A stretch of 63,913 bases of DNA, filler included, from Octopus bimaculoides (Eukaryota): assembly GCF_001194135.2 (NCBI RefSeq). It is 5 parts of 4 records of this genome, joined end to end, with 100 filler letters (N's around TTAATTAATTAA, not from the genome) between each part and the next. Parts side by side here need not be neighbours in the genome. Positions count along the whole stretch, not along the records: positions 1 to 24,775 come from NC_068986.1; positions 24,876 to 35,931 come from NC_068984.1; positions 36,032 to 40,499 come from NC_068986.1; positions 40,600 to 47,213 come from NC_069004.1; positions 47,314 to 63,913 come from NC_068988.1. One strand, given 5' to 3'. Shown one piece after another: positions 6,093 to 49,295 of the stretch. The notes beneath the pieces are model-generated. The model did no database searches, had not been told where the DNA came from, and worked only from the letters and a program-made list of their open reading frames with translations. Made by a program: the position numbers and the translations under genes. Within the stretch, counting starts at the first letter, position 1. Each line of letters opens with the position of its first letter.

Positions 6093-6166
6093 GTGATGAG
6101 GAATTATGTACATTATTTACATTATTTACATTTGACGGATATTTGTCTTCATCTTGTTCGTTGCTA

Positions 6167-6210
6167 ACACAACGTTTCGGCTGAAATACCCATCAGCCTT
6201 CATCAGGTGT
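6167..6210 (-). ncRNA. Minimal type-I hammerhead ribozyme
   Basis: ACAC-CUGAUGA-a-GGCUG(loop)CAGCC-GAAA-CG-U-U-GUGU: stem I, full core, 5-bp stem II, palindromic ACGU stem III. Confidence 0.7.
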
Positions 6211-6264
6211 CTTGGGGAAATTTCGAACCTAGAAATGAGTACTCAAGTTCGAAATTTCCCCAAA

Positions 6265-6308
6265 ACACCTGGTGAAGGCTGGACGGTATATCAGCCGAAA
6301 CGTTGTGT
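6265..6308 (+). ncRNA. Hammerhead motif, core mutated (CUGGUGA)
   Basis: Inverted copy of 6167-6210 with A6 to G. Confidence 0.5.
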
Positions 6309-7121
6309 TGAAAACAAACAAGATAAGGATAAATGTCCGTCAAATGTAAATAATGTAAATGATGTTCTATACCCACATTATAAATTGGTGCACTTAGTTT
6401 TGTTGAGTGAATGCCTTAACAGAGAATCAGCACAAGTTATTGTTTTCAGGAAAAGAAATCAACTAGTTTACTCGCCCCTAGACGACGTCGAGTGGAGTGT
6501 AACTACTCCAAAACGTACCGAACTGTCAATTACAGGAAGGTTACATCTGTCTGTGGACTACTCAGCCTCTTAGACGTTAATCTAGGAGCAGGTAATTAAT
6601 TTGATCGAAAAATTGAATCCTTAATATCGAACGACAGAGATCCATGAATATGTGTGTACCTCCCTGTGTACAGTACCTTATATAGATATGTATGTATGTA
6701 TGTTTGTATGTATGTATGTATGTATGTATGTATGTATGTATGTATGTATGTATGTATGTATGTATGTATGTATATATANNNNNNNNNNNNNNNNNNNNNN
6801 NNNNNNNNNNNNNNNNNNNNNNNNNNNNNNNNNNNNNNNNNNNNNNNNNNNNNNNNNNNNNNNNNNNNNNNNNNNNNNNNNNNNNNNNNNNNNNNNNNNN
6901 NNNNNNNNNNNNNNNNNNNNNNNNNNNNNNNNNNNNNNNNNNNNNNNNNNATAGCAGGAAAATTACATCAATAAATCATCACAGAAGATATACGTCCAAA
7001 ATAATATTCTATTAATAGATATATATATAAATATAAAACAATTGCAGCGTGGAAGGTGTTTATAAGCCATTTAAAATAACACACAAAATCCGTTAGATTC
7101 ACTTCAACATTTAAATTTAAT

Positions 7122-7171
7122 TTGTCAAAATATTTTCGTCGCTTTGATACCGCGACCTGTTCACTGACAAA
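7122..7171 (-). ncRNA. Minimal type-I hammerhead with G3-C8 swapped core
   Basis: UUUGUCA-GUGAACA-g-GUCGC(9 nt)GCGAC-GAAA-AUAU-U-U-UGACAAA: 7-bp stem I, 5-bp stem II, palindromic AAUAUU stem III. Confidence 0.6.
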
Positions 7172-7198
7172 ATTCTGTGCTGCACAGAATTTTGTCAG
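7164..7198. repeat. Perfect 17-bp inverted repeat, 1-nt loop
   Basis: CTGACAAAATTCTGTGC-T-GCACAGAATTTTGTCAG. Confidence 0.95.
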
Positions 7199-8183
7199 CA
7201 AGTGCATCTCCGTAATATATAAATATAGTTACTGGCATAGATGTGCGTTGGTATACAACACCCAGCTATACCAGTAACTTCTTTAAACATCTTTTTCGTA
7301 TATTTTTAAATAGCATTCGATTGACTACACGGAAATTCCCCCTTTTCTCTGACGAGTGGGTATATTACCTAATAATGATTATCAATTTTAGATTTCATTT
7401 CGAAGGGTAATGCAATCATGAAACGATCGTAGGATATTTTAAACTTTTTAAATAATCATACTTTATATATTTATATATCTATCTGTTAATACAATATTAT
7501 TTTGGACGTATATCTTCTGTGATGATTTTTTGATGTAATTTTTCCTGCTCAATATATATATGTGTGTACGTGTGTGTCTATGTGTGTGTGCACGTTTGTC
7601 AAACCTGAATGCTATCATATATTCCTTCAAATCTCATTCCAAATTATATGAAACTGGTGTCGTTGATCATACAATTACAAAGAAAGAAATAAAAAAAGAA
7701 AGAAACTCCTCAGAAACACAAACATCACCCTCCAGAGTAAACCCGCTCTTTCATCATGAAAATTGTGTGGCATGATTCCCTCTGGAAAAAAAATACAATC
7801 CTCGAAAGAAACCATTTTATATTCTCTATTTCATTTCTTTTTTCAGCCAACTCGAGCTAATCATCTTCATAATATTGTTACAAATAATGGATATTCAGTA
7901 ATTGATTACCTCCTACTTCAACTGAAATAATTCTCAAATAAAAATAATGAAGCGACCACTGCTTGTGTATTTATCCTTAAACAATCTTGAAGTAGTTTAT
8001 TTTTTCACATTATTCTCATGTAATACTGAATATTTGTTATTAAGTTCCAAAATATATTCAGAAATTGTATTTGTTATTCTATTGCATAATGCCCTATTAA
8101 TAATAAATATACCTTCAAGAAATATATAGATATATCATCTAATTTTATTTCTTGATATTAGTTTTGAAGTGGAAATCGGTCAT

Positions 8184-8257
<74 letters not shown>

Positions 8258-8285
8258 CATTTAACACTGTAGTATTAATTTCATA

Positions 8286-8445
8286 TTTTTGGCACAAGGC
8301 CGGCAATTTCGAGGATGTGGGTAAGTCAGTTACATCGACCCCAGTGGTCAACTGCCACTTATTTTACCTCAGAACGCAAAGGCGGAAAAAATGCCGCTAA
8401 GCACTTTGTCCGGCGTGCTAACGATTCTGTCAGCTCGCCATCTTT
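8286..8445 (-). mobile_element. tRNA-derived SINE family A, internally deleted
   Basis: Reverse match to head and tail of 8470-8688. Confidence 0.75.
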
Positions 8446-8469
8446 TATTGCTGTAATATTGATATTAGT

Positions 8470-8688
8470 AAGGCGGCGAACTGGCAGAAACGTTAGCACC
8501 CCGGACGAAATGTTTAGCGGTTTTTCGTCTGTCTTTACGTTCTGAATTCAAATTCCGCCGAGGTCGACTTTGCCTTTCATCCTTTCGGGGTCGATAAATT
8601 AAGTACCAGTTGCGTACTGCGGTCGATATAATCAACTGGTCCCCTCCCCCAAAATTTCGGGTCTTGTGCCTAGAGTAGAAAAGAATAT
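8470..8688 (+). mobile_element. tRNA-derived SINE family A, full length
   Basis: AAGGCGGCGAACTGG head, B-box-like GAATTCAAATTCC, central CTTTCATCCTTTCGGGGTCGATAAATTAAGTACCAG; 15-bp TSD AATATTGATATTAGT (8455-8469 / 8684-8698). Confidence 0.9.
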
Positions 8689-8914
8689 TGATATTAGTGA
8701 TGCACAGGCACATCTAATCTAAAGAACATAAAAGTGAAATTTGGTAATGTACTTTTCTTAACAGAAGCTTAACAATTTTTTTGTCTGTAGTCGTTAAAAA
8801 TTTGAAATATTAGAAAACATCTCTATACCCTCCCTAATTTTAAAACCTTTTCTCAAATATAACTCAAACGAAGTCAAAGAAAGTAGATAACATGAAATTA
8901 TATAGCAAAAGTAA

Positions 8915-47086: not shown

Positions 47087-47119
47087 CTGTTTCTGCTGTG
47101 GGAAATTGTGCTTTCGGAG
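47087..47119 (+). CDS. Exon 2 (33-nt micro-exon) of small secreted protein
   Basis: CCTTACAG acceptor, GAG|GTAAGT donor, phase 1-1, reads AVSAVGNCAFG and completes an A-x-A-like cleavage site. Confidence 0.65.
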
Positions 47120-47257
47120 GTAAGTGCTTGTGCATAATCATATTGCAATAAATGAGTGTGTGTGTGTGTGTGTGTGCGTGTGTGTGTGTGTGTGATATAT
47201 ATATACATATATANNNNNNNNNNNNNNNNNNNNNNNNNNNNNNNNNNNNNNNNNNNN

Positions 47258-47269
47258 TTAATTAATTAA
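47258..47269. other. Assembly linker TTAATTAATTAA
   Basis: Centred in a 100-bp N block between exon 2 and candidate exon 3. Confidence 0.9.
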
Positions 47270-47313
47270 NNNNNNNNNNNNNNNNNNNNNNNNNNNNNNN
47301 NNNNNNNNNNNNN

Positions 47314-47499
47314 CTTACAAATATATATAACATACAGAAAATTGCACTACTGGGCACTGCACACATCATACGCAAAACACTTTCAATACAGTAACCGTAA
47401 GAGCATCACAGCAAACCACAGCACATACCCAAGGCACACAGAGCTGCGCTCGGTAGTGAAGTGAAAGCACGTTATAAAAATAAAGCTACTGAATAATAA

Positions 47500-47549
<50 letters not shown>

Positions 47550-47600
47550 CTACTGAATAATAATAATAATAATAATGATAATAATAGTAATAATAATAAT
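47314..47600 (+). mobile_element. Dong/R4-type 3' end in (TAA)n
   Basis: NIQKIALLGTAHIIRKTLSIQ* typical RLE-LINE C-terminus, 3'UTR then (AAT)n tail. Confidence 0.75.
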
Positions 47601-47912
47601 AGACTGTCAGTTACGGAAATCGCTACATTTTAACCGAAACTGATCCAATAAATATCAACTCATCGTAGCAGAGAATATTCAATTCCTATTAAAAATGTTC
47701 ATACCATTGAATAAGATGCTCTATTAAATCTGAATGCATCAAGAAGAAAATCTCGTCAGTTTGATATTATTCCAACGACATTTGGGCTAAATTCCTAGAT
47801 TTATGTTCACTACTGAGAACAAATTCTTGATCATTACTTCTTCATATTCACTGTCCCATATAATGTTAAATTTTCTCTTAAAACTTTAATTCTTCTCCTA
47901 TTTTCATATCAG

Positions 47913-48028
47913 CTAAATGCAAAGAGAACATTATAGATAGGCTTGACGTTATAGACAAAGTAATTTATAGACATACAGGAATATGTATTAACCATAAAGA
48001 ATTGAATAGAAGACACGATAACTGCTAA
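47913..48028 (+). CDS. Candidate exon 3 of small secreted protein
   Basis: Strong acceptor TTCTTCTCCTATTTTCATATCAG; phase-1 frame AKCKENIIDRLDVIDKVIYRHTGICINHKELNRRHDNC*; possible internal donor AAA|GTAATT. Confidence 0.45.
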
Positions 48029-48620
48029 ATATATAAACACACAAGTGGAATACACTTAACACACAATTATTATTATTAGATCGGNNNNNNNNNNNNNNNN
48101 NNNNNNNNNNNNNNNNNNNNNNNNNNNNNNNNNNNNNNNNNNNNNNNNNNNNNNNNNNNNNNNNNNNNNNNNNNNNNNNNNNNNNNNNNNNNNNNNNNNN
48201 NNNNNNNNNNNNNNNNNNNNNNNNNNNNNNNNNNNNNNNNNNNNNNNNNNNNNNNNNNNNNNNNNNNNNNNNNNNNNNNNNNNNNNNNNNNNNNNNNNNN
48301 NNNNNNNNNNNNNNNNNNNNNNNNNNNNNNNNNNNNNNNNNNNNNNNNNNNNNNNNNNNNNNNNNNNNNNNNNNNNNNNNNNNNNNNNNNNNNNNNNNNN
48401 NNNNNNNNNNNNNNNNNNNNNNNNNNNNNNNNNNNNNNNNNNNNNNNNNNNNNNNNNNNNNNNNNNNNNNNNNNNNNNNNNNNNNNNNNNNNNNNNNNNN
48501 NNNNNNNNNNNNNNNNNNNNNNNNNNNNNNNNNNNNAATAATAAGAAACTAATATTGTCATCAAAGGAAAAACTAAGCTAAGAGCATTAGATTTCTTTGA
48601 AGAAAGCAGCGAATGCATAC

Positions 48621-48680
<60 letters not shown>

Positions 48681-48682
48681 TA

Positions 48683-49295
48683 AATCTGAGCGAGATGTAA
48701 ACAGTAGCAACACGGAATCGTAACACATAATTGCCAACCAAGTGTGGCGTCTCGTACGGGGTAGTGCTATTGGCGTTTATAGTCCCAGGAAGATATCTCG
48801 TCCAGCTAGCTAGCGACACACATTCTGTGTCCGATTAGTATTTGTGAGGCGAAGTCATCGCCCCCATCCCTAGCCTTACGTGATACATACGGACTCGAAC
48901 TTCTTGATGGTTAGTCGTCGTCAGCGTGTATTAATCATCAGCTAGTGATGAAAACTCACCCCACTCGCAAAATACTATATGCTTTTCCAGTGACGAACCG
49001 TTGCTGATCACGAAATAGGAGAAATAAGCTATATTAACTCTCTGAGTAAGATGTAAACAGTAGCAACATGAAATCGTAACGTATAATTGCCAAACAAGTG
49101 CTACTGGCGTTTATAGCCCCAGGAAGACATGTCAGATCACTAGCTCGTGATTAACACACGCACGCTGAAGATGGGTAACCATCCAGAAAATCGAGTCCGT
49201 GTGTATCATGTAAAGTTAGGTATGGGAACGGTGACCTTCCTTCACAAATACTAATCGGACACAGAAAGTGTGTCGTCAGCCAGCTGGAAGAGATA
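48683..49295. mobile_element. Direct-plus-inverted repeat element with paired hammerhead motifs
   Basis: A (48683-48795) repeated at 49040-49130; B (48790-48950) inverted at 49135-49295; HHR on + at 49161-49201, degenerate on - at 48888-48928. Confidence 0.65.

Follow-up and report, generated by a model that had tools for sequence, protein, structure and literature searches.

Hammerhead-bearing fold-backs in an Octopus bimaculoides window as probable short Penelope-like insertions with an inverted pseudo-LTR

The closest described relatives of the elements treated here are Penelope-like elements (PLEs). PLE insertions have been described with an inverted pseudo-long terminal repeat (pLTR), a tail, target-site duplications (TSDs) and palindromes at the junction (PMC3846280), and inverted 5'-truncated copies with a one-sided tail of 30–40 bp are typical of the group (PMC8557442). 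‘Dual min-HHRs’, minimal hammerhead ribozymes (HHRs) lying ~100–700 bp apart on opposite strands and probably representing truncated PLEs, were reported in 2014 (PMC4209133). In vitro, the protein of PAc, an Anolis Poseidon PLE, cuts and extends both target strands, uses two reverse transcriptase (RT) start sites, which mark the two ends of the tail, and can insert without HHR cleavage; no RNA-seq ends are found at the HHR cut site (PMC11167929). Here we analyze five HHR-carrying fold-back loci, pointed out in an initial annotation, in a window of Octopus bimaculoides DNA (assembly GCF_001194135.2), meaning the whole stretch of 63,913 nucleotides that was studied, which is rich in gaps and microsatellites and includes 5,988 N. 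We are confident that these fold-backs are real, well-formed and ordinary, belonging to the known PLE inverted-pLTR insertion type. They are most likely short pLTR insertions lacking an open reading frame (ORF), in which an inverted, tail-less second copy was probably laid down in the same insertion event.

The likeness to endonuclease-positive PLE insertions extends to head-to-head pLTRs, a 30–40-nt tail at one end, TSDs, a palindrome or microhomology at the junction, microsatellite targets and 5' truncation (PMC3846280, PMC8557442). The fold-backs differ from them in having no ORF between the repeats and no identified autonomous partner, and in that one family, called family A, is extremely abundant, with a dominant single-arm form that starts at an (AAT)n stretch; unlike the minimal type I HHRs of metazoan PLEs (PMC4209133), the motif of locus 2 is G3–C8. 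Two RT starts separated by the tail, cutting and extension of both strands, insertion independent of HHR cleavage and the lack of RNA ends at the cut site would be shared with PAc, whose description does not demonstrate inverted products and whose transfer to the fold-backs we infer (PMC11167929). Non-LTR retrozymes are also ORF-less, HHR-bearing and PLE-related, and the ~355-nt unit of locus 5 falls in their size range, but they are same-strand tandems that release self-paired circles, whereas the fold-backs carry opposite-strand HHRs (PMC7229834, bioRxiv 10.64898/2026.07.22.740005). L1 twin or dual priming likewise gives a TSD-bounded insertion with an inverted 5' part, and the locus 5 breakpoint is contiguous on the inferred template; the 3' end, however, is duplicated in the fold-backs and not in the inversions of L1 (PMC2837659). 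The fold-back architecture has been in print since 2013–2014 and is common in other animals’ DNA, so the loci add little as fold-backs.

Architecture and target sites

The initial annotation had claimed an inverted duplication at each of the five loci and their division into four unrelated sequence families, both of which were borne out. Self-BLAST returned an inverted duplication at 5/5 loci (Table 1), although that of locus 2 is a palindrome only and locus 5 is not a simple fold-back, and no cross-match between the four families was found at E ≤ 1e-3. Family A comprises locus 1 (copy 1) and locus 3 (copy 2), which are 86% identical over 273 nt in self-BLAST (6080–6352 versus 42070–42335); loci 2, 4 and 5 are single copies of the other families. 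The bounds of the two family A insertions have been corrected to those of Table 1, each insertion being flanked by TSDs, and in both copies ~30 extra nucleotides, the tail, are present on one arm only. Their centers are alike, not identical: the tail-bearing arm begins ~5 nt earlier in copy 1. Copy 1 sits inside a decayed reading frame resembling that of a long interspersed nuclear element (LINE), and the translations of its flanks resemble a paralogous frame at 4500–4808.

The head-to-head inverted copy at the 5' end is present, amounting at locus 2 to no more than a 35-nt palindrome, comparable to those of 18 and 38 bp in rotifer pLTRs (PMC3846280). A TSD or a microsatellite target is also present: TSDs of 13 and 14 bp in family A, a weak TSD of AT-rich 13-nt repeats at locus 2 (7023–7035 and 7215–7227), and microsatellite flanks at loci 4 and 5. 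The one-sided tail is found in family A, and longer overhangs occur at loci 4 (~70 nt) and 5 (~110 nt). Together with variable breakpoints (see below), the TSDs and the one-sided tail support the earlier suggestion of ORF-less PLE insertions frozen at the inversion step. A miniature inverted-repeat transposable element (MITE), or a DNA transposon with symmetric terminal inverted repeats and a fixed short TSD, was rejected given the one-sided tail, the two TSD lengths and a family that is mostly single-armed.

Table 1. Features of the window, with positions counted along its full length.
Feature	Position	Strand	Details
Inverted duplications	6110–6365, 42055–42306, 43632–43743, 7164–7198, 48793–48949/49136–49296		self-BLAST
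Locus 1, family A fold-back, copy 1	6080–6364	-	tail-less inverted arm, center, HHR arm, ~30-nt tail 6080–6109
TSD of copy 1	6067–6079 (left), 6365–6377 (right)		13 bp
Locus 3, family A fold-back, copy 2	42070–42333	+	tail ~42304–42335
TSD of copy 2	42056–42069 (left), 42334–42347 (right)		14 bp
Locus 2, solo pLTR-like piece	7036–7214	-	35-nt 5' palindrome 7164–7198
Locus 4, fold-back	43510–43765	-	perfect ~40-nt central palindrome; flanked by (TA)n tracts
Locus 5	48679–49296	-	read on the - strand: inverted B + partial repeat A' + spacer + B + A, between microsatellites
HHR, copy 1	6166–6211	-	minimal type I, intact core, palindromic 2-nt stem III, predicted cut 6171/6170; descriptor and covariance model
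HHR motif, inverted arm of copy 1	6264–6309	+	A6G core change, likely dead; descriptor and covariance model
HHR, inverted arm of copy 2	42113–42158	-	minimal, intact core; descriptor and covariance model
HHR, tail-bearing arm of copy 2	42207–42252	+	minimal, intact core, predicted cut 42247/42248; descriptor and covariance model
HHR motif, locus 2	7121–7171	-	core GUGAACA (G3–C8), stem I 7 bp, stem II 5 bp, palindromic ATAT; descriptor
HHR motif, locus 4	43618–43661	-	G8A core change, stem I 7 bp; descriptor
HHR motif, inverted B of locus 5	49158–49204	+	intact core, stem I 7 bp, stem II 5 bp, near-palindromic stem III; looser descriptor
Degenerate HHR motif, locus 5	48887–48929	-	GAAG, weak stems
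PLE ORF remnant, broken	138–693	+	post-RT region, Cys-rich linker, start of GIY-YIG
Second PLE ORF remnant	24480–24775	+	60–67% protein identity to the first; ends at a gap (N's)

Around locus 2, a pair of 87-nt inverted repeats (6953–7038 and 7463–7549; 93%) encloses the locus together with a small palindrome (7227–7279), and is possibly a MITE-like element that received the locus 2 insertion.

Breakpoints and the origin of the inverted arm

Family A was followed in public data using 42030–42337 as the reference, against two RNA runs (X22 and X24; ~6% of each sampled) from a library that appears to be unstranded, and two sets of DNA contigs; runs X19–X21 (share 0–0.12) were left out and carry no weight as evidence. 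The family is transcribed (7596 and 5651 matched RNA reads), and its arms reach ~1.1–1.3 × 10^5 times the flank depth, a ratio that is no copy number. Most reads exit the left arm at 42190/42194 into a common sequence ending in (TTA)n (393+927 in X22, 314+616 in X24), and 136 and 137 DNA contigs leave it at 42194, from which it follows that the dominant form of the family is single-armed. In this form the arm is followed by a fixed ~15-nt leader and then by an (AAT)n stretch; frequent attachment to long PLE ORFs, named earlier as a sign against a distinct class of element, was not seen. RNA reads spanning 42195 number 3.3% and 4.8% of the reads at 42186, values that contain spill-over and are therefore upper bounds, and the contig counts give 1.9% and 0.8%; because contigs break at repeats, the fold-back share is itself a rough upper bound. 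Contig ends cluster at two places ~32 nt apart, 42303 (68 and 116 contigs) and 42334–42335 (480 and 502), and the inverted arm of copy 1 stops at the equivalent of 42303/42304, the first of these family 3' ends.

The 15 joints listed of 159 comprise nine head-to-head junctions at differing places, three within-arm deletions and three strand-switch artefacts. The nine junctions have depths of 91–330 against 45–48 in the flank (~2–7 times), and some cut through the HHR or omit it. Set aside were the joints on ‘opposite strands’ (42077–42091/42294), which reflect mapping between the two arms of a palindromic reference, and 3 of the 12 skip joints, which stay inside a single arm and were left out of the inversion count.

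The same geometry recurs in unrelated families in metagenome contigs, which were searched for head-to-head HHR cores with a center limited to 40–70 nt and flanks of up to 1.5 kb. At least 105 loci match; among the 105 listed, 68 are fold-backs, 36 are not and one was not re-matched, and the exact family A pattern has no metagenome match. Direct repeats of at least 8 nt bound 30 of the 64 fold-backs that lie away from contig edges (control 16%), and those of at least 10 nt bound 19/64, against 1.5% of 4032 mismatched flank pairs. Nearly all of the distinct repeats of at least 10 nt (16/17) are one-sided, adjoining one arm and lying 28–55 nt past the other. Within metagenome families the centers vary, from 50 to 70 nt among ten copies of one and from 61 to 69 nt among four of another, within the limits of the pattern. 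Inversion points are thus variable both in the family A reads and in the metagenome families, the outcome that the initial annotation had associated with ordinary PLE 5' inversion. A stop-free frame of at least 200 aa occurs in 1 of the 68 metagenome fold-backs, where it is a low-complexity repeat, and tblastn of the window peptides against these fold-backs gave no match; the short centers and flanks imposed by the search mean that this says little about ORF attachment. Three listed loci (L060, L073, L079) represent a single fold-back insertion, whose 69-nt center contains an additional internal partial repeat.

The inversion likely arises at each insertion, by priming on both target strands. 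In the proposed sequence of events, a PLE protein would make a nick in each strand of an AT-rich or microsatellite target, one of them priming cDNA at the distal start site (the tailed copy) and the other at the proximal site (the tail-less copy). The two cDNAs would be made on the same or a second RNA, and a small hairpin or microhomology lying just 5' of the HHR would be where their ends are joined, making that place a breakpoint hotspot. Repair would leave a TSD-flanked palindrome, whose read-through RNA, from either strand, would fold into a long rod burying the HHR. The end of the inverted arm at a second family 3' end links the two-start-site mechanism known in vitro for PLEs to their hitherto unexplained inverted insertions.

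Several points weigh against this account. The centers of the two family A copies are near-identical, and their inverted arms share a T at 42158 where 92–95% of the reads and contig depth has C, which fits inheritance of a whole fold-back; the breakpoints come from the 15 listed joints; read evidence is limited to family A, loci 2, 4 and 5 being single copies; no TSD could be resolved at loci 4 and 5; none of the families has an identified ORF-bearing autonomous partner; and Arkhipova’s paper favors self-priming, not double priming.

The first of these points could indicate a minority family A lineage whose fold-back, with a fixed center, is copied whole by PLE proteins as a palindromic non-autonomous element, a reading we regard as unlikely. 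Both window copies join within a few nucleotides of the same hairpin, with near-identical ends and the rare inverted-arm base in common, up to a few percent of reads span the center, and several copies of one metagenome family have similar centers. The junctions are nevertheless not identical, family A has many other breakpoints, and in that metagenome family the orientation of the center relative to the tail appears, by eye, to differ between copies. No 4-nt insertion at the center reaches 3% of reads. Comparison of the four family A arms gave 17 private differences, one arm-diagnostic site and one copy-diagnostic site. One arm-diagnostic site among ~110 is unremarkable, and the copy-specific variant argues the opposite way: copy 2 carries, in both arms, a rare transversion (1–4% in family A) that is missing from copy 1, as expected if one template gave both arms.

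The same elements might alternatively owe their inversion to snap-back self-priming of one cDNA or antisense template at the 5' palindrome, or to later repair. Self-priming at junction palindromes has been proposed (PMC3846280), and loci 2 and 4 have perfect central hairpins, but self-priming by itself leaves unexplained why the inverted arm stops at a second family 3' end, and it does not explain locus 5, where the inverted part ends at a direct partial repeat as in twin priming (PMC2837659); we consider this route decidedly improbable.

Locus 5 is a partial tandem with a unit of ~355 nt and an inverted 5' part. The end of its inverted B lies within ~7 nt of the start of A', the signature of twin priming (PMC2837659), and from this one copy the arrangement implies a template with two HHRs ~355 nt apart. 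The locus may thus record a ~355-nt tandem unit, that is, a multimeric template of retrozyme size, and this unit is not unusually self-paired, folding no better than shuffles (z −0.84).

Hammerhead motifs, predicted folding and RNA

A minimal HHR had been proposed at each of the five loci. A descriptor requiring an intact core, with a swap of the 3–8 pair allowed, found four motifs in the window against none in each of 12 shuffles, and one core mismatch raised the count to six against 0–1 in six shuffles. Permitting one mismatched pair in stem III added 49158–49204 (+), with a shuffle mean of 0.005–0.035 per window (200 shuffles). A covariance model recovers family A only: its four motifs score at E 2.6e-6 to 3.6e-4, and loci 2, 4 and 5 are not among the 11 matches up to E 10. 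The model was trained solely on 18 metagenome HHRs chosen with the same descriptor, and covariation among them is therefore partly built in. A minimal type I HHR is thus strongly supported in family A, and indicated by the descriptor at loci 2, 4 and 5. Among the 150 Rfam matches listed of 323, there was no hammerhead family, the matches being microsatellite-driven miRNA.

The further claim that four of the loci carry an HHR on each strand proved overstated, two intact cores being present at locus 3 of the five, where stem II has just three uninterrupted pairs. At locus 4 the + motif is destroyed (core CCGACAA, with a 21-nt deletion spanning stem III and stem I). The motif type of locus 2, whose core lies at 7158–7164 (-) with the 3–8 pair swapped in this single copy, occurs in none of 300 shuffles. 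All 34 metagenome HHRs extracted (34/34) are C3–G8, a pair that the search pattern favored; natural U3–A8 has been reported (PMC4209133, PMC3088659), and an engineered C3G/G8C change partly rescues activity (PMC11167929).

The initial annotation had also considered a non-autonomous class of rod-like, both-polarity ribozyme elements, viroid- or retrozyme-like replicons whose RNA would self-cleave on both strands, circularize and reinsert. Long rods are indeed predicted for the RNA of both strands of the family A fold-backs, locus 3 has its two intact cores, and family A is transcribed. In the transcript of either strand, however, the HHR comes after its own complement and would be buried in the rod, its formation costing a predicted 50–88 kcal/mol in the family A rods versus 5–8 in single arms. 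Counted per strand, the HHRs number one at every locus (locus 2 having a single HHR in all), so that no monomer could be released; same-strand tandem HHR units, as in retrozymes, were not found, and locus 5 would read as a tandem only with its inverted part flipped. Two intact cores are missing in 4/5 loci, the arms show no covariation beyond copying, the family is mostly single-armed with variable breakpoints, and the loci are linear, TSD-bounded DNA insertions. RNA ends at the predicted cleavage sites had been named as a further sign; in both family A RNA runs there was no pile-up of read starts or ends, at those sites or elsewhere, which in an apparently unstranded library is weak evidence about molecule ends. 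Replicons of this kind are, all told, highly improbable, and the PLE fold-backs are, on these predicted folds, probably dead ends and substrates of adenosine-to-inosine (A-to-I) editing.

Hyper-editing has been described for Penelope and for palindromic repeats (PMC5625713). A>G and T>C changes make up 64/138 and 65/143 of the variable places in the family A RNA, against 9/60 and 7/66 in the DNA contigs. Nine sites picked from 40 listed rows, with DNA-variable rows excluded, stand at 14–27% in RNA and 0.1–2.3% in DNA; they include an inserted A beside the core (42219, 21–22%) and an A of stem II (42129, 17–18%). Family A RNA is likely edited by ADAR, although the DNA is not from the same animals and contigs drop rare variants, and much of the double-stranded RNA that is edited in this animal may come from the family.

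Short ORF-less units, PLE remnants and other repeats

Family A may be a PLE derivative resembling a short interspersed nuclear element (SINE), with apparently A-to-I-edited RNA. More broadly, and quite tentatively, the arms could be ‘Penelope-SINEs’, short units without an ORF that are mobilized in trans, as opposed to ends clipped from ORF-bearing PLEs, a view we find doubtful as a whole. Family A would then be among the largest HHR-bearing repeat families known, in the order of 10^5 copies, with RNA edited in the ribozyme and its surroundings at 15–27% per site. Locus 5 would be the fossil of a ~355-nt tandem hammerhead RNA, twin-primed, and direct evidence that PLE protein inserts retrozyme-like multimers, and locus 2 would represent a natural G3–C8 hammerhead family. 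No earlier description of the SINE-like family A unit, the tandem locus 5 unit or a natural G3–C8 hammerhead was found in a literature search that left subscription papers and supplements outside its scope. An ORF-less HHR family of very high copy number would supply thousands of events for breakpoint mapping, as a natural test set.

The PLE fragments noted earlier at 161 and 24480 are genuine remnants of PLE ORFs (Table 1), but nothing ties them to the fold-back families, with which they share no DNA. They have 572 relatives at E ≤ 0.001, some full-length with RT and GIY-YIG-like motifs recognized by eye, and weak RVT_1 was found in 2 of 10 relatives scanned. Atlas matches to HTH_animal (18%) and GIY-YIG (11%) serve as leads only. 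A word-indexed protein search gave no match, and Pfam gave nothing over the cut-off for four window peptides.

C-terminal remnants of non-LTR elements, which we take to be R4/Dong-like, lie at 4434–5040, 5960–6400, 33389–33698 and 34214–34784, with no Pfam match above the cut-off. A repeat that we assume to be SINE-like is present in many copies (37607–38067, 8361–8688, 11211–11630, 45072–45508 and 42338–42552), and self-BLAST shows it both in tandem pairs and as an inverted pair that forms a 460-nt palindrome (82%).

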